Under the pieces are notes generated by a model. It did not search any database and was not told where the DNA came from. It saw only the letters and a list, made by a program, of their open reading frames with translations. A program made the position numbers and the translations under genes. This document shows positions 1 through 6,365 of a stretch of DNA of 6,365 nucleotides, one piece after another. Source of the stretch: a virus (taxonomy: Duplodnaviria; Heunggongvirae; Uroviricota; Caudoviricetes); the IMG/VR virus record IMGVR_UViG_2698536552_000010, one strand, 5' to 3'. How positions within the stretch are numbered: position 1 is the first letter of the stretch; each line of letters opens with the position of its first letter.

Positions 1-88
1 TGCATGGATAAACTACAAGACGAGATATAAACCACCCTGCATTTAAATAAACAATAAACAACATCAGAAAAATAATTCTGCTCTATGG

Positions 89-115
89 TTTACATTCAAA
101 AATATCATTTATACT
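89..115 (+). promoter_or_regulatory. Candidate sigma70 promoter for the 156-491 ORF (-35 TTTACA 89-94, -10 TATACT 110-115, 15-nt spacer)
   Basis: Hexamer matches read directly; spacer is short and AT-rich DNA gives many chance matches. Confidence 0.25.
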
Positions 116-155
116 TTTCAGAACATCACCAGCAAGGCATAAACAAGGAAACTAA

Positions 156-491
156 ATGAAGTGGATTGTGATTGATACAGTTATCCAGCCATCATGCGGA
201 ATATCTTTTTCAGTCATATGGAGTAAAATAAAATTAATAATCTGGTATCAATCGGATGCTTTCTTACCTCCTGAAAGTATATTTACACTGACTCACACAG
301 GCATCATGCTCAATAACAAAGTGCTACCTGTAACCATTTACAACGTAGTACCATTCAATAAAACATTCTGGAATTCAATCAAAAATAGCCAGGAATGCCC
401 TACAAATACAGATAACGTATTGAATGAATGCTTTAATAACCGTTGCACTCTGCAAATATGTCCTTATGGACTAAAACAACAAAGTCCATAA
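156..491 (+). CDS. Hypothetical protein, 111 aa, 6 Cys, in AT-rich DNA; convergent to the prophage late genes
   Basis: ATG at 156 preceded by SD AAGGA (145-149) at 6-nt spacing; 111-codon open frame in roughly 35% GC DNA (hand count), where chance ORFs of this length are uncommon; no family recognised. Confidence 0.45.
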
Positions 492-494
492 GGA
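461..494. repeat. Perfect 12-bp inverted repeat (TCCTTATGGACT / AGTCCATAAGGA) with 10-nt loop, spanning the stop codon of the 156-491 ORF
   Basis: Read directly: 461-472 is the reverse complement of 483-494; stop TAA at 489-491. Confidence 0.8.
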
Positions 495-504
495 GTTTAC
501 TCAC

Positions 505-547
505 ATCTGACAAAATCAATATAAACAGCCCCTCCGGAGAGGGGCTG
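505..547 (-). terminator. Rho-independent terminator for minus-strand transcription (GC stem 526-534/539-547, loop CGGA, U-tract on minus strand)
   Basis: Perfect 9-bp GC-rich stem CAGCCCCTC/GAGGGGCTG; minus strand downstream reads TTTATATTGATTTTG. Confidence 0.5.
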
Positions 548-938
548 GAGAGTGGCGCTATGTGCCATTGCATGGTGCCGGGTGCCTCCCGGTGAATTCA
601 GTACCAGCACCTGAATCCGCGATTATCCCATATACCTACTCGCTGATTGCCCCTCCGCACAGGGGGATTCACCATGCCAGTTTCTTTTAACAAACTCCCC
701 GCAAACCAGACAACAGTCAACCGCCTGAATTGTGAAGTATTTAAAAATTTCTCCCGCTAACTGATACCCGGCTAACAGTCTGGCGTTTTCTTTTTCAGCA
801 ACGGGAAAGCAACAACCACCACACCCGCCACCAGCACACCGTCAGCCAGCACTGACATTATCCGGCTGCTGCAATGCCATTCACAAAAACAGTAAGCAAT
901 CACTTTTTACCGTAACAGGTGATAATCCAGATATGTAT

Positions 939-1292
939 CTACCCCAGATGAGTAATCCGAAGTTCATCCATACCACAGGTCCTGGCTATTCTGTTGTACT
1001 CCTGAACAAGAGCAAATAATTCTGAATTAGCAACCATGAACTCATCGCAAACCCTCTGTATAGCATCACTATTCAGAATAATAACGTCTCTTCCCGAAAG
1101 ACGATCAGGAGTACAGAACAAAACTGTCAAACGGCTGAAGGCCTTTGCTCGTGCTGCATTGACTATATCAATACGCTGCCTAAGGATGAAACACCCCGAC
1201 GCCTCATCAATATTCACTCTACCCACACCATATGAATGATAAATATTTAATGCTGAAAAAACCATTAGACCGTATAACAAACACTCAATCAA
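939..1292 (-). CDS. Hypothetical cargo protein (117 codons from TTG at 1292; 108 aa from first ATG at 1265) in the stx-equivalent slot downstream of Q and the tRNA
   Basis: Protein-like composition; 6 of 11 Arg codons are AGA/AGG, the codons read by the adjacent tRNA-Arg(UCU); no clear SD, start uncertain; family not recognised. Confidence 0.5.
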   Translation of the reverse strand: MIECLLYGLMVFSALNIYHSYGVGRVNIDEASGCFILRQRIDIVNAARAKAFSRLTVLFCTPDRLSGRDVIILNSDAIQRVCDEFMVANSELFALVQEYNRIARTCGMDELRITHLG

Positions 1293-1402
1293 TACTTAAC
1301 AGAACTTTTATTTTTGACAAACATAAAATATTTTCAACAATATCCTGAGCCAGGTATATTTCAGTATAAGGCTCTGCCGGAAGGAATCTGGAAGAATGAA
1401 TA

Positions 1403-1479
1403 TGGCGCGCTGTACTGGATTCGAACCAGTGACCGATTGCTTAGAAGGCAATTGCTCTGTCCGGCTGAGCTAACAACGC
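1403..1479 (-). tRNA. tRNA-Arg (anticodon UCU), 77 nt with encoded CCA
   Basis: Minus strand folds as a cloverleaf: acceptor GCGTTGT/ACAGCGC, D stem GCTC/GAGC, anticodon stem ATTGC/GCAAT with loop CTTCTAA, T arm ACTGG-TTCGAAT-CCAGT, discriminator G, CCA. Phage-borne tRNA-Arg downstream of Q is known from Stx-type lambdoid phages. Confidence 0.9.
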
Positions 1480-1519
1480 TGAATACCGATAATGGACCGC
1501 CATCGGGGACCCGCCCCCN

Positions 1520-1768
1520 NNNNNNNNNNNNNNNNNNNNNNNNNNNNNNNNNNNNNNNNNNNNNNNNNNNNNNNNNNNNNNNNNNNNNNNNNNNNNNNNN
1601 NNNNNNNNNNNNNNNNNNNNNNNNNNNNNNNNNNNNNNNNNNNNNNNNNNNNNNNNNNNNNNNNNNNNNNNNNNNNNNNNNNNNNNNNNNNNNNNNNNNN
1701 NNNNNNNNNNNNNNNNNNNNNNNNNNNNNNNNNNNNNNNNNNNNNNNNNNNNNNNNNNNNNNNNNNNN
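1520..1768. other. Run of 249 N (gap or masked sequence); position and size would fit one to three further phage tRNA genes
   Basis: N run read directly; the tRNA suggestion is inference from the ileZ-argN-argO arrangement in Stx phages. Confidence 0.9.
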
Positions 1769-1900
1769 TGCTGTTTTAGCATGTCTTTTCCTTTTCCGGT
1801 TAACGTGACACACCAATAACTCTTGTCGAAAAAGCCAGCAAGCTGAAAGACAGGTATTCACCGCCACCAGCGCGTTTACTGTACTGACGCGATTTCAGTC

Positions 1901-1926
1901 ATAAAAAACCCGCTCGGCGGCGGGTT
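1901..1926 (-). terminator. Rho-independent terminator on minus strand, candidate tR' (Q-dependent readthrough site)
   Basis: Minus strand reads AACCCGC-CGCCGA-GCGGGTT followed by TTTTTTAT, about 40-65 nt downstream of the candidate PR' -10. Confidence 0.55.
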
Positions 1927-1973
1927 GTAGAAACTCTTCTAACGTCAGGCATAAAACGCCCATCGTTATAACG

Positions 1974-2001
1974 AATTTACCACAGATTCCGGAAAAATCA
2001 A
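1974..2001 (-). promoter_or_regulatory. Candidate late promoter PR' (minus strand -35 TTGATT 2001-1996, 16-nt spacer, -10 TAAATT 1979-1974) just downstream of the Q stop
   Basis: Hexamers read directly; position matches the lambdoid Q-PR'-tR' arrangement. Confidence 0.4.
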
Positions 2002-2026
2002 CCTTGTTACCTAGTTACCTTTTTTA
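1991..2026. repeat. Left copy of a direct repeat flanking the second N run (shares cggaaaaatcaacc + tagttacctttttta with 2295-2323, plus an extra 8 bp)
   Basis: Read directly; the extra 8 bp (TAACAAGG on the minus strand) creates the TAA stop after ...KKVTR. Confidence 0.85.
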
Positions 2027-3125
2027 NNNNNNNNNNNNNNNNNNNNNNNNNNNNNNNNNNNNNNNNNNNNNNNNNNNNNNNNNNNNNNNNNNNNNNNNNN
2101 NNNNNNNNNNNNNNNNNNNNNNNNNNNNNNNNNNNNNNNNNNNNNNNNNNNNNNNNNNNNNNNNNNNNNNNNNNNNNNNNNNNNNNNNNNNNNNNNNNNN
2201 NNNNNNNNNNNNNNNNNNNNNNNNNNNNNNNNNNNNNNNNNNNNNNNNNNNNNNNNNNNNNNNNNNNNNNNNNNNNNNNNNNNNNNNNNNNNNNCGGAAA
2301 AATCAACCTAGTTACCTTTTTTAACTGCCGCTCAGCCCATGCTTCTTCAATATCAAACCGAGTCACCAGCGCATCATAGAATTTCTTAACTGTTTTTTCC
2401 CATGACGCGCGTGTTATCTGGTTTGTCACCTCGCATATAGCATTAAATGCCTCCGTTGATGGTAGTCTTTCATAGCCACGACCACCACAACGCTGGCAGT
2501 CTCTGATAACAGGCATACCACGTTTTACCGACTCTTCACGATGAATGGCGACACCACGCCCACGGCAATCCTTACAGGCGGTGGAAACCTCACCCTTTCC
2601 GCCACACTCCGGACAGGCAACTTTTACCACCTCCCTGACTTTTTTCCATTCTTCCCAGTAAGACGGATACACACCTTTCGTACACTTTGCCCATACCGGC
2701 GGCTTACCATCCGGATACTGGATCTTGTTTGTAAAAACCTCGCTTTCAATAAATTTTTTTCCGTGACAGCAGGGGCACTGTTTTTTGCTCGCCGCGCTAC
2801 GGGCATAATCTTCAAACGCATACGAAGCCATAATACGCATCACTGCCGGTTTTATTTCTGCCGGGAGTTTTCTTAACGCCGCCACGCGATCACACCGACT
2901 GAGTGCATATTCTGTCAGCAATTCTGTTGCCCGCTCTCTGTCATTCATACTAATGCCCATTTTCCCAAGGAACGCAGAAACCCCCATCTCAGCCCGATTC
3001 TGTGTCATGCCCTGCGCGGCCATCACATCAGTGATACTCAGCGCATCTTTCGACGTTGAGGCCGATGCATCAGTCAGGCCGGGGGATTTTGGGGAGTAGT
3101 ATTTCGGTAAATCTTCCAGTTTCAT
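2007..3125 (-). CDS. quuQ: Late antiterminator Q (Qin quuQ-like), with four DnaJ-like Cys-rich repeats; 3' end crosses the N run, about 273 aa if it ends at ...KKVTR
   Basis: Position directly downstream of rusA with ATGA start/stop overlap and upstream of PR'/tR'; motifs CPCCHG, CPECGGKG, CKDCRGRG, CQRCGGRG; N-terminus MKLEDLPKYYSPKSP resembles Qin QuuQ as I recall it. Only 2295-3125 is directly read. Confidence 0.8.
   Translation of the reverse strand: MKLEDLPKYYSPKSPGLTDASASTSKDALSITDVMAAQGMTQNRAEMGVSAFLGKMGISMNDRERATELLTEYALSRCDRVAALRKLPAEIKPAVMRIMASYAFEDYARSAASKKQCPCCHGKKFIESEVFTNKIQYPDGKPPVWAKCTKGVYPSYWEEWKKVREVVKVACPECGGKGEVSTACKDCRGRGVAIHREESVKRGMPVIRDCQRCGGRGYERLPSTEAFNAICEVTNQITRASWEKTVKKFYDALVTRFDIEEAWAERQLKKVTRLIFPXXXXXXXXXXXXXXXXXXXXXXXXXXXXXXXXXXXXXXXXXXXXXXXXXXXXXXXXXXXXXXXXXXXXXXXXXXXXXXXXXXXXXXXXXXKKVTR
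2027..2294. other. Run of 268 N (gap or masked sequence) inside or at the 3' end of the Q gene
   Basis: N run read directly; the two flanking repeat copies are offset by 297 bp, keeping the Q frame. Confidence 0.9.
2295..2323. repeat. Right copy of the direct repeat flanking the second N run
   Basis: cggaaaaatcaacctagttacctttttta matches 1991-2026 except for the 8-bp indel. Confidence 0.85.
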
Positions 3126-3502
3126 TTTTTGACCTGCCCTTCAAGCATTATGGGATAAATCTTCACCCCCAGACGTCCACCAGATACTGGCTGAGCACGA
3201 ACGATATTGATTTCATCAAACTGCTCATCGTCCATTAGCAACCCCGCATGCGTCAGCGCATCCAGCGGCGCTTTCAGAATATTGTCCAGGTCACGGCGGC
3301 GCTTATCCGGTGGTTCTGCAATAATTTTTATTGCCAACCTTCCGGACAGGCTTAATTTCAGCCGCTGCTGGCGAACAATAAGCGCCACTGCCCGGCGATA
3401 ACGCTCCCCGGCTTTTGATACAAAATATGTGCTGCCACGACGACGCCAGTAAGTGTTCACCGTCGGCGGGTAAGGTAAAACAAATTCTATGCGCTCGGTC
3501 AT
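3122..3502 (-). CDS. rusA: Crossover junction endodeoxyribonuclease RusA (Holliday junction resolvase), 126 aa
   Basis: Contains the RusA signature PPDKRRRDLDNILKAPLDAL and N-terminal LPYPPTVNTYW; ATG immediately follows the upstream TAA (TAAATG) and its stop overlaps the Q start (ATGA). Confidence 0.9.
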   Translation of the reverse strand: MTERIEFVLPYPPTVNTYWRRRGSTYFVSKAGERYRRAVALIVRQQRLKLSLSGRLAIKIIAEPPDKRRRDLDNILKAPLDALTHAGLLMDDEQFDEINIVRAQPVSGGRLGVKIYPIMLEGQVKK

Positions 3503-4561
3503 TTATGCTTTCCACTTCAGAACACCCGAATTTCTCGCGTGCATTAAAAAACGAATCAGCAACAACAGCTGACTGCCGTGTTTCTCTTCAAAATCTTTTA
3601 CTCCGGCATGTAGTTCGTTACGGCATTTACGGCATAACGGAATAACAAACAAATCATCAGCCTTTGTTCCCATCCCTCCCAGTCCATGACCAATGATGTG
3701 ATGCGGATCATCTGCCTGATTGCCACACGTCATGCATTTCTGCGTTTTTACCCAGCGCGTGTATACAGGCATCTCTTCCCGTTGTGATTTCTGGCGCTGG
3801 AGATACTGAGCCGGTGACTCCGGATCAACGGCAATGCTGACCACCGTCTTTTCCTGTGGTGGGTTCTGTTGCTGGTGGACGTGAGGCAGTAACGCAATAT
3901 TTTTTGTGCGCTGCTTCAGTATGCTGGTGGCTGTCTGCTCTCCCGGTATGATGTCGCTTTCACTGTACACAGAGCGAATTTTTTCCGCACGCAACCCCAG
4001 CGAACGACGTAATACCGCTTCCGGTAGCGCGTCCGCCACCTGATTGCGGACCGCCCACCAGGATAATTCAGCCAGAGATAATTCACGCTCCTGCGTACCG
4101 CTTATTGCGTGACCGATGACGTCAATCATCCATGCTGACAGGTTTTGATGAGCAAGTTGCTCGAGTGATTCGGATGTCTGGTCACGCAGCTGGTTGTCGC
4201 AGTGCCAGCACAACACCATTGCGCCGGTACCATAACGGTGAATGACGGTTTCGCTGTGATGATAATCGCCGTGTGGCCACTGGCAGGATTTAATATGGCG
4301 CAACAGCCAGTCAGACAATGCACCAGCACCACCAGCAGCACGAATCACCCGTGCGTTACTGAAAAACGGCAGCAATGTTTTGTCTTCCACCAGCGGCTGG
4401 CGAGCGGCAGGAACGACCCCGGACGGCAGATTACGCATGCTTTTTGGTTCCGGCTCCACCAGTATTCTGCCGTTATGGAATGCTGACATTGATTCACGGC
4501 CTGGCTTAACGATAACCAGACCGAGTTCCGGTACCAGAACAGGTCGAAGTAATACCCGCAC
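3503..4561 (-). CDS. ydfU: DUF968-family prophage protein (ydfU-like), 352 aa, GTG start, C-terminal HNH-like Cys/His motif
   Basis: Long minus-strand ORF with GGAGG 4 nt upstream of GTG at 4561; C-terminal CMTCG...PHHI...CRKCRNELH; sits between rem-like and rusA as in Qin. Confidence 0.8.
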   Translation of the reverse strand: MRVLLRPVLVPELGLVIVKPGRESMSAFHNGRILVEPEPKSMRNLPSGVVPAARQPLVEDKTLLPFFSNARVIRAAGGAGALSDWLLRHIKSCQWPHGDYHHSETVIHRYGTGAMVLCWHCDNQLRDQTSESLEQLAHQNLSAWMIDVIGHAISGTQERELSLAELSWWAVRNQVADALPEAVLRRSLGLRAEKIRSVYSESDIIPGEQTATSILKQRTKNIALLPHVHQQQNPPQEKTVVSIAVDPESPAQYLQRQKSQREEMPVYTRWVKTQKCMTCGNQADDPHHIIGHGLGGMGTKADDLFVIPLCRKCRNELHAGVKDFEEKHGSQLLLLIRFLMHARNSGVLKWKA

Positions 4562-4636
4562 ATTACCTCCAGATCCGTTGCTGGAATGTGCGGGACGGAC
4601 GCGTTGGCCGTTCGGAGTAAGGGAGCCTGACGGAGA

Positions 4637-4918
4637 TTATCCAGTGACGGTAGTCGAGGCTAAGGGCTTTTTTAACCTCGCATCCGCGCCTGCGGTAACA
4701 CTGAATGAGCCATTCGGCCTGTTCTTCAGTGCATGGGGGATGCTGGTACCAATCAGATTTAAATGCGTGAGAGCGCCGCCCGTGCCTGCTGGCAAAGACG
4801 GCTGAATTATCAGAATTGTGTAGTCTGGAAGGCAGTGGCTGACAATAGCGCCATTCTCAACGCGCACAGTATAGAGGCCATCTTCACTAAAAATTTCACG
4901 TAATTCTTCGATTTTCAT
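4637..4918 (-). CDS. rem: rem-like small prophage protein, 93 aa from ATG at 4918
   Basis: SD GGAAGGA 8 nt upstream of ATG; lies between hokD and ydfU as rem does in Qin; protein identity is from context, not recalled sequence. Confidence 0.45.
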   Translation of the reverse strand: MKIEELREIFSEDGLYTVRVENGAIVSHCLPDYTILIIQPSLPAGTGGALTHLNLIGTSIPHALKNRPNGSFSVTAGADARLKKPLASTTVTG

Positions 4919-5000
4919 CAACAGAATCCTTCCAGATAAATAGCACTCCCCTGTTCGGGGTCCATCCCTCTTCTCCCTGCGCGCTACTTAAGTATTTTTG

Positions 5001-5030
5001 ATTCTATTCCGGCACCATCTAAAACTTCAA
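5001..5030 (-). promoter_or_regulatory. Candidate sigma70 promoter for the rem-ydfU-rusA-Q transcript (-35 TTGAAG 5030-5025, 18-nt spacer, -10 TAGAAT 5006-5001)
   Basis: Hexamers read directly; located between the hokD terminator and the rem-like start. Confidence 0.3.
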
Positions 5031-5035
5031 ACGCG

Positions 5036-5070
5036 TTGAAAATAAAAACAAAAACCCGCCGAAGCGGGTT
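5036..5070 (-). terminator. Rho-independent terminator downstream of hokD
   Basis: Minus strand reads AACCCGC-TTCG-GCGGGTT followed by TTTGTTTTTATTTTC. Confidence 0.65.
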
Positions 5071-5138
5071 AAGTGTGGGTGCATTGAGGATGCCTGCCCC
5101 ATCAGAGGTGGCGAGGGATTTCTCCCCCGCCTGGTCTC

Positions 5139-5294
5139 TTACTCCTCAGGTTCGTAAGCTGTGAAGACAGCGACCTCCGTCTGGCCGGTTCGAATTCGTA
5201 CCTCGCAGAGGTCTTTCCTCGTTACCAGTGCCGTCACTATGACGGTTAAACAGATGACGATCAGGGCGATTAACATCGCCTTTTGCTGCTTCAT
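5139..5294 (-). CDS. hokD: Hok-family type I toxin HokD (RelF), 51 aa
   Basis: Translation MKQQKAMLIALIVICLTVIVTALVTRKDLCEVRIRTGQTEVAVFTAYEPEE matches the HokD sequence as I recall it; SD AAGGAG 9 nt upstream of the internal ATG at 5294. Confidence 0.9.
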   Translation of the reverse strand: MKQQKAMLIALIVICLTVIVTALVTRKDLCEVRIRTGQTEVAVFTAYEPEE

Positions 5295-5505
5295 AGCCTG
5301 CTTCTCCTTGCCTTTCGGCACGTAAGAGGCTAACCTAGATTTGCCGTTCATAGATTGAGCCTCAGATTAATGTTAAGCGTCTTGCCGGACGCGTAATGTT
5401 AACTGGGGCTTTTCTCTATCTGCCTTTTGGTGTTCATGCCTGAGACAGATAGCCTCAAGCACCCGCTGCAATTCTACTTAACTCTCCTTTTCCCGCAAAC
5501 CGTTT

Positions 5506-5589
5506 TTATCCCCAGCGGCAAATCGAATACACCACCAGCGCCACCGCCATCGCAATTCCTACCGTTGTTAATGCTTCAGGCCAGGTCAT
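5506..5589 (-). CDS. Candidate 27-aa hydrophobic peptide ([27 protein letters not shown]), start overlapping the upstream stop (ATGA)
   Basis: Found by hand translation; single predicted transmembrane-like segment; below the ORF track length cut-off; no dedicated SD. Confidence 0.3.
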
Positions 5590-5930
5590 CGTAAAATATC
5601 CTCCACGCTTATCAGTCCGTTCCGCTCCAGATAACTCATCGCCTTATCCGGTAATTTGCAGTCTGGCTTCGCTTTCCTCAGTTGCCAGGTTAACTGCTTT
5701 ACCAGCATGGTTAACTCATCGACCAGACGCTGATATCCCACTGGTTTGTATTCATGCAATTTACCGGCTGGCTCTGCTGCCAGCGATACCAGTGCGATTT
5801 CCAGAACAGCAATATCCATCTTATATGTGCGGATGATGTCATGGTCGATTGTGCCCGGTATGCACAGTCTCTGTGCTTCAATAGTCTCCTCTGCGTGAGC
5901 TATTAACTGCTCTCTGGTAAAAGTCGTCAT
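5586..5930 (-). CDS. Hypothetical protein, 114 aa, paralogous at its N-terminus to the 55-aa ORF upstream
   Basis: ATG at 5930 overlaps the upstream stop (ATGA); shares MTT(I/F)T(K/R)E and IAL(A/V)SL(E/A)AEP motifs with 5927-6094; family not recognised. Confidence 0.6.
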
Positions 5931-6094
5931 GCCGTAGCCCCTTCTTGATATTTTTCAAACCAGAACACAACCGGCTCTGCTTCCAGCGATGCCAGCGCAA
6001 TCCGTGCCAGTTCCATTTGTTCACCACGGGTAAGCCCGTTTTCAAGCGGGTTTTTAATGAACAATTCAATACGTTCTTTGGTAATAGTGGTCAT
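5927..6094 (-). CDS. Hypothetical protein, 55 aa ([55 protein letters not shown])
   Basis: Found by hand translation; SD GGAG (TAAGGAGtaacacATG) 8 nt upstream of ATG at 6094, immediately after the upstream TAA. Confidence 0.55.
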
Positions 6095-6104
6095 GTGTTA
6101 CTCC

Positions 6105-6335
6105 TTAACCCGCAGTGCTTTCAACTGATGAGGGGAACAAAATCTTTTCATCAAACCCTGCATTCATATCATGAACAGCAACACACCAATCCATCGACGA
6201 ACGATTATCAAGAGCCTCCATGATTTCATCCATGCGGCGTAGGTCATACAGGTAAATGCTTTTATCGCCAATGGTGTAAAAGCCAATTTTTTTCGGTGAT
6301 GGATGAGGTGTACTGGCAATAGCGGACACTACCAT
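6105..6335 (-). CDS. Hypothetical protein, at least 76 aa; frame stays open to the window edge, so the gene may start beyond 6365
   Basis: Minus-strand ORF ending TAA at 6105; no stop in frame between 6336 and 6365 and no SD before ATG 6335. Confidence 0.45.
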   Translation of the reverse strand: MVVSAIASTPHPSPKKIGFYTIGDKSIYLYDLRRMDEIMEALDNRSSMDWCVAVHDMNAGFDEKILFPSSVESTAG

Positions 6336-6365
6336 TTGTTCTTTTTTTAAGCAGCCATCTGATGA

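Follow-up and report, generated by a model that had tools for sequence, protein, structure and literature searches.

The closest described regulatory system is the late switch of phage lambda, with a Q protein of 207 aa in the family PF03589 and a late promoter, PR', that reads TTGACT, 17 nt, TAAATT, TGACTC, and AACGATGGG. Promoters of the lambda type are characterized by -35 and -10 hexamers, a -10-like element about 6 nt past the -10, and a terminator. With regard to genome assembly, false duplications are typically parted by assembly gaps (PMC9516828). The pipeline of Velvet, SSPACE, and GapFiller places N gaps between contigs that are linked by read pairs, and it is greedy, so that false joins are possible; in the same study, the assemblies of Shigella sonnei were the most fragmented, averaging 405 contigs (Page et al., 2016, PMC5320598).

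The stretch of DNA analyzed here (6,365 nt, referred to as the window) carries a lambdoid late-regulation module on its minus strand, comprising hok/sok, DUF968, RusA, and Q, and is interrupted by two runs of N, which leave three pieces (A, B, and C; Table 1). The second N run is enclosed by two near-identical sequences, a long copy (R) and a short copy (R'). The window is, with a probability of roughly 90%, a mis-scaffolded stretch of a short-read draft from a Shigella sonnei-type genome with two lambdoid prophage remnants (P_A and P_B). The sequence comparisons below show from which locus each piece comes and that resolved genomes have the repeat only once.

The Q gene starts at position 3125 on the minus strand, and its product matches PF03589 with 179 bits against a cut-off of 26.7 in both a 273-aa and a 284-aa form, in addition to a weak match to the DnaJ-type CXXCXGXG motif. 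On the minus strand, PR' of the window reads TTGATT, 16 nt, TAAATT, CGTTAT, and AACGATGGG, with an intrinsic terminator after it. All of the elements of a lambda-type PR' are therefore present in the sequence, and PR' with its sigma70-dependent proximal pause is a predicted promoter of this type. A generic sigma-70 scan skipped PR', as 8 of 12 positions matched at a threshold of 9, and a direct comparison with lambda was used instead. The resemblance to the lambda late switch thus includes the family of Q, the PR' hexamers, the AACGAT pause element at lambda-like spacing, and the terminator that follows. Unlike lambda Q, however, the Q proteins considered here have 273 or 284 aa and a zinc-finger-like CXXCXGXG region; moreover, the reading frame of the 284-aa allele crosses PR', and tRNA genes follow tR' at P_A.

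Table 1. Features of the window, with positions counted from its first nucleotide.
Feature	Position	Strand	Description
Piece A	1-1518		Prophage remnant P_A; 1518 nt, 100% identity with S. sonnei CP104423.1 at ~2.53 Mb (L014 5846-7363)
IraM/PmrD-like gene	156-491	+	In piece A
STnc100 sRNA	517-706	-	Strong Rfam match (132 bits); between the IraM-like gene and the DUF3927 ORF
tRNA-Arg(tct)	1403-1479	-	ARAGORN
First N run	1519-1768		250 nt; read as a scaffold gap from the P_A piece to the P_B piece
Piece B	1769-2026	-	258 nt of remnant P_B, just downstream of the 273-aa Q; spans the Q stop codon, PR', a tR'-like terminator, P_B-specific DNA (130 nt), and the 5' end of a 65-aa ORF (ATG 1782)
tR'-like intrinsic terminator	1899-1926	-	AACCCGCCGCCGAGCGGGTT, then a T run
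PR' -10 and pause element	1962-1979	-	TAAATT (1979->1974); -10-like AACGAT (1967->1962)
Long copy R	1990-2026	-	37 nt, CGGAAAAATCAACCTTGTTACCTAGTTACCTTTTTTA; Q273 codons KKVTR, TAA 2009-2007, predicted PR' -35 TTGATT (2001->1996)
Second N run	2027-2294		268 nt; read as a scaffold gap with no real DNA between these flanks
Short copy R'	2295-2323	-	29 nt, CGGAAAAATCAACCTAGTTACCTTTTTTA; P_A-type allele, Q read-through KKVTRLIFP, second copy of the -35 hexamer (2306->2301)
Start of piece C	2295-2379	-	P_A-type markers: R', A at 2361, G at 2379
Identical stretch within Q	2380-2722	-	343 bp, P_A = P_B; the assembly would switch locus here
Rest of piece C	2723-6365	-	P_B; 99.9% identical to 10 complete P_B loci
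Q 5' two-thirds	2723-3125	-	P_B part of piece C
RusA	3122-3502	-	Pfam match
DUF968 gene	3503-4561	-	Pfam match
hok/sok	5139-5464	-	70-aa toxin ORF of the hok family (hokD in relatives); a match to the sok antitoxin RNA (112 bits) overlaps it
IS end	6304-6365		Last 62 nt of the window

The sequence check confirmed the description in the original prediction of an N run with near-identical flanks that both encode KKVTR, lie 297 bp apart, and differ by 8 bp. More precisely, R and R' differ solely by the 8-bp indel TGTTACCT, which is present in the left copy only, so that the offset between the copies is 305 bp for the 15-mer at the 5' end of the repeat and 297 bp for the 18-mer at its 3' end. Each of these two words occurs exactly twice in the window (0 expected, 200 shuffles). 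Both copies abut the N run without any intervening nucleotide, and both encode KKVTR in the Q frame of the minus strand; in the left copy this is followed by a TAA stop, and in the right copy by LIFP and a frame that stays open into the N run (ORF 2007-3125). The assignment of the repeat to the 3' end of Q and the PR' -35 hexamer was also borne out, by the PF03589 match and by the lambda-like PR' layout downstream.

An exact-protein look-up found the genes of the window in complete Shigella sonnei chromosomes, including that of strain 53G (HE616528.1), at two places located about 670 kb apart. In CP104423.1, P_B lies at 1.86 Mb and has the gene order DUF968, RusA, Q (273 aa), 65-aa ORF, and N6/N4 methyltransferase; on the repeat side, the order is Q273, R, PR', tR', 65-aa ORF, and methyltransferase. 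P_A lies at 2.53 Mb in the same chromosome, with an IraM/PmrD-like gene, DUF3927, tRNA, Q (284 aa), and RusA (124 aa), and its order on the repeat side is IraM, tRNAs, tR', PR', R', and the 284-aa Q. The Q genes of the two loci are in direct orientation in this chromosome.

Piece B belongs to P_B, as positions 1769-2026 differ from the 10 complete P_B loci by one mismatch (position 1970) in nine cases and by two in the tenth (L010), and in the matching loci the sequence continues unbroken from Q into the region of piece B. Positions 2306-6365 have three mismatches to P_B of CP104423.1. The alignments of 1769-2026 and 2306-6365 to this locus overlap by 18 bp, which means that P_B holds one R and no extra DNA. 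The beginning of piece C has a different origin: positions 2295-2722 (428 nt) are identical to P_A, with mismatches to P_B only at 2361 and 2379 besides R'; past this point, starting at 2723, the window tracks P_B. On the left side of the repeat, the only difference between P_A and P_B as far back as position 1901 is at 1964. Across 1901-2722 (~820 bp), the two loci therefore have four differences, namely the 8-bp indel and three SNPs (1964, 2361, and 2379); at these markers, the left piece is of the P_B type and the start of the right piece is of the P_A type. The marker at 1964 falls within the PR' pause element, which reads AACGAT at P_B and AACTAT at P_A. The A at 1970 is a private SNP of the window, shared only with one IMG/VR contig (L024).

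The first N run also has flanks from different loci, the tRNA region of P_A on one side and the start of the 65-aa ORF of P_B on the other, and these flanks have no overlap. A real junction of A and B, in which this N run would hide the 65-aa ORF and a tRNA, was considered and rejected, since piece A matches P_A at 100%, piece B derives from P_B, and the two are joined in no resolved genome. The only tRNA that ARAGORN found in the window is tRNA-Arg(tct), and the left piece stops 39 nt past it (1480-1518). On the IMG/VR contig L025, the next tRNA after Arg-tct has a CAT anticodon (4243-4318) and is assigned to Met by ARAGORN and to Ile by RefSeq in relatives, while the middle tRNA-Arg of the E. 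coli relatives appears degenerate at P_A. At the other end of the window, the terminal IS sequence adjoins an IS3-family transposase in complete genomes and recurs, inverted, at both loci. Both prophage remnants are bounded by IS copies, which probably restrict how long contigs become in drafts.

The original prediction described the 8 bp as an insertion in the left copy, but they are not a local mutation; they are the normal allele of the other prophage locus. Both indel alleles are present in complete E. coli and Shigella genomes (L004, L014, L001, and L002), and the indel is a natural allele difference because other E. coli prophages, such as that of strain H8, naturally carry the R' form with a 284-aa Q. 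The TGTTACCT octamer is a near-tandem repeat of the adjoining ACCTAGTT. Its presence or absence sets the length of Q, to 273 aa with a stop just before the PR' -35 or to 284 aa. In the latter, the last 11 codons (LIFPESVVNSS) cross the PR' -35, the spacer, and the -10, and the stop lies in the initially transcribed region. The real C-termini of Q are thus KKVTR (273 aa) at P_B and KKVTRLIFPESVVNSS (284 aa) at P_A, with one PR' per locus.

A single copy of the repeat with no extra DNA, which the original prediction had named as the outcome pointing to an assembly artefact, is what complete genomes and N-free contigs contain. All 10 complete P_B loci have P_B-left, one R, Y_B, and P_B-right together with a 273-aa Q. 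At eight of the 10 complete P_A places, the exact R' string occurs once and with A at 1964, and seven of these eight have a called 284-aa Q (the exceptions are L021, without the exact R' string, and L016, without a called 284-aa Q). Within complete genomes, the exact R' string was found at P_A only, and none of the 20 complete S. sonnei places has both copies at one locus.

Two N-free IMG/VR contigs resolve the flanks of the N run individually. Contig L025 is 100% identical to positions 2295-6365 (4071 nt) and 99.93% identical to positions 1-1518, and between its two window-like parts lie 263 nt with tRNA(cat), tR', and PR'; it has a single R', and its 284-aa Q ends in KKVTRLIFPESVVNSS. Contig L024 matches piece B at 100%, with the private SNP at 1970 among the shared positions, and its single R lies beside a 273-aa Q. 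A 50-mer containing this SNP had no matches in genome_contigs or metagenome_contigs and one match in IMG/VR, which is L024 with its single-copy structure. Complete E. coli genomes are ~95-96% identical to positions 1769-3200, and both flanks fall on one long-form R. One place covers 80% or more of a 1432-bp query in 23 E. coli records, and those listed extend over ~1128-1137 bp, roughly 297 bp less than the window; the listed matches to the full query extend over 1135-1137 bp. The two-copy arrangement was not found among the listed matching E. coli complete genomes or the IMG/VR matches, and the gapped pattern R...N{255-280}...R' had no matches in 185,579 species-representative genomes, where the pattern may not match masked N runs. 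No exact protein record was found for the 372-aa ORF with X residues. As for a mobile element between the repeats, the evidence favors none: all of the sequence between them is N, the repeats (29 and 37 bp) are non-identical, and the site is 'empty' in all relatives.

The arrangement can be accounted for by the way in which a scaffolder would treat two near-identical loci. The assembler would have begun contig C in P_A and switched to P_B within the 343-bp stretch that the loci share. Read pairs would then tie both true left neighbors of the near-repeat to C, namely A on the P_A side and B on the P_B side, and the scaffolder would set A and B in series before C, with N gaps between them. As B ends in the R of P_B and C begins with the R' of P_A, the overlapping contig ends would have been left unmerged because of the 8-bp indel, which would give rise to an apparent direct repeat around the gap. 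We infer the exact software steps; a scaffolder and gap filler of the Velvet/SSPACE/GapFiller type would act in this manner. The order of A, B, and C (P_A, P_B, and P_A into P_B) occurs in no resolved genome, and the location of the repeats at the terminal bases on both sides of the gap is a signature of unmerged overlapping contig ends. In P_A, 263 nt separate the end of piece A from R', and an overlap would be expected between B and C; set against these values, the gap estimates of 250 and 268 nt are wrong, which is a point against the scaffolding reading.

The locus agrees in several respects with the false duplications at gaps described for other assemblies (PMC9516828), as the segments flank an N gap, the copies differ slightly, and the resolved assemblies are single-copy. 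A false gene model results as well, in this case the 372-aa 'Q' with X residues. The copies end at the gap on both sides, they derive from near-identical repeats that are easily confused, and other drafts break repeatedly at the same repeat site. On the other hand, the confusion is between paralogous prophage remnants of a haploid bacterium rather than between diploid haplotypes, and the duplicated length is only 29-37 bp. The likeness to drafts from the Velvet/SSPACE/GapFiller pipeline lies in the N gaps of arbitrary length and in sister drafts with ENA-style WGS accessions that have scrambles and single-N joints at this site, and is an analogy rather than an identification of the pipeline behind the window.

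The Q of the window type (P0004) is a hybrid that combines the N-terminal two-thirds of the P_B protein with the tail of the 284-aa P_A protein, and NCBI sources name it an S. sonnei antitermination protein Q. It is present on 366 contigs, of which the longest is 83,956 bp, but was found on no complete chromosome, and none of its 385 index blocks has a contig of >0.2 Mb. The parental Q273 (P0001) and Q284 (P0002), in comparison, are each present on at least 1000 contigs of up to 5.04 Mb. P0004 probably represents a chimeric gene model that arises repeatedly in short-read drafts. The drafts that bear it have ENA-style WGS accessions, N runs of 1-71 nt, and pieces of P_A and P_B that are scrambled or doubled, and the combinations of the four markers differ among them. 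In an independent draft (L027, IMGVR_UViG_2693429621_000002), a single N at position 4036 marks the same R junction (CAACCT n ACCTAGTTACC), which suggests a joint of the scaffolder's 'negative gap, no overlap found' kind; a 4-nt ACCT overlap lies on either side of this N. Among the drafts with P0004, one (L034, FTTI01000148.1) has two P_B RusA-Q copies (933-2369 and 2714-4147) with an 18-N gap between them. One of these copies ends in R and the other in R', a larger false duplication of a like kind. Two further drafts (L031 and L035) have a dangling P_B piece whose start is exactly at 2722.

A real and strain-specific event at the Q/PR' site would be the main biological alternative, either an in-frame tandem duplication of ~297-305 bp or a small insertion, with an extended Q, two -35 copies, and an N run that stands for an unread interior. 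The 297-bp offset is a multiple of three, both copies are in the Q frame, and an interior consisting entirely of N is unreadable; a local duplication, however, would copy one locus, and here the copies and their flanks carry the markers of two loci 670 kb apart. The left copy is R with C at 1964 and the 130 nt of P_B, and the right copy is R' with A at 2361 and G at 2379, all of the P_A type. Furthermore, the arrangement is found in no complete or N-free relative, including contigs that are 100% identical to each flank, the scan of 185,579 species genomes for the gapped pattern was negative (although its ability to match masked N runs is uncertain), and copies that end exactly at the N run are what a contig overlap predicts. 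We thus consider such an event very improbable, and it is equally hard to credit that the source isolate has ~297 extra bp at Q/PR' from, for example, an illegitimate exchange between the remnants. If it did, Q would have an extra 99-codon C-terminal extension, and there would be two tandem PR' -35 elements. The masking artefact that the original prediction also allowed for would make the N runs hard masks, laid by a database or provider over resolved sequence, and the repeats would then flank 268 nt of real DNA. Some stretches of a public collection are described as N-masked, and the lengths of the runs are not round numbers. Nevertheless, the succession of A, B, and C would still require a mosaic of P_A, P_B, and P_A-to-P_B within 800 bp that is in no resolved genome, there is no reason for mask boundaries to fall exactly at the repeat copies, and native N runs are present at the same site in sister drafts. 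Masking is accordingly regarded as highly doubtful, and a scaffolding artefact is favored in its place.

A narrower question is whether the hybrid Q of contig C could be a real recombinant or gene-conversion allele of an S. sonnei sub-lineage, in which case the artefacts would be limited to the N run and the position given to piece B. N-free contigs from at least three assemblies carry the hybrid (L025, L026, L032, and L037), L024 has the look of a reciprocal contig, and P0004 has the wide occurrence among contigs given above. A genuine allele would, however, be expected in about 11 index blocks of >0.2 Mb, based on the ~3% of index blocks of this size for the neighboring DUF968 protein, and P0004 is on no contig of >84 kb. 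The marker combinations also differ from draft to draft (for example, R' with Y_B or with P_B-left), which suggests an arbitrary choice of path rather than a single recombinant, and piece B of the window itself shows that an R of the P_B type persists in the source genome. The Q of L024 (P0003) gives no evidence of reciprocity. We rejected L024 as evidence of a reciprocal recombination, as P0003 is a natural allele widespread in E. coli and the two Q genes are in direct orientation in CP104423.1. A real hybrid Q therefore seems unlikely, and even if it were real, the duplication and the N run would remain artefacts.

The N run and its duplicated flanks are very probably no real genomic feature. 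Among the readings put forward in the original prediction, which were a tandem duplication, an inserted element, and an assembly or masking artefact, only the assembly artefact is supported, by the single copy in N-free contigs and complete genomes. The biological interest of the site is small; each locus has a single Q end and a single PR'. The case serves rather as a caution, since short-read drafts of S. sonnei are repeatedly misassembled at these two near-identical prophage remnants. Misassembly there has put the probably chimeric P0004 on 366 contigs of the searched collection and has produced scaffolds with false duplications, and counts of prophage structures or Q alleles based on these drafts would mislead annotation or pangenome studies.
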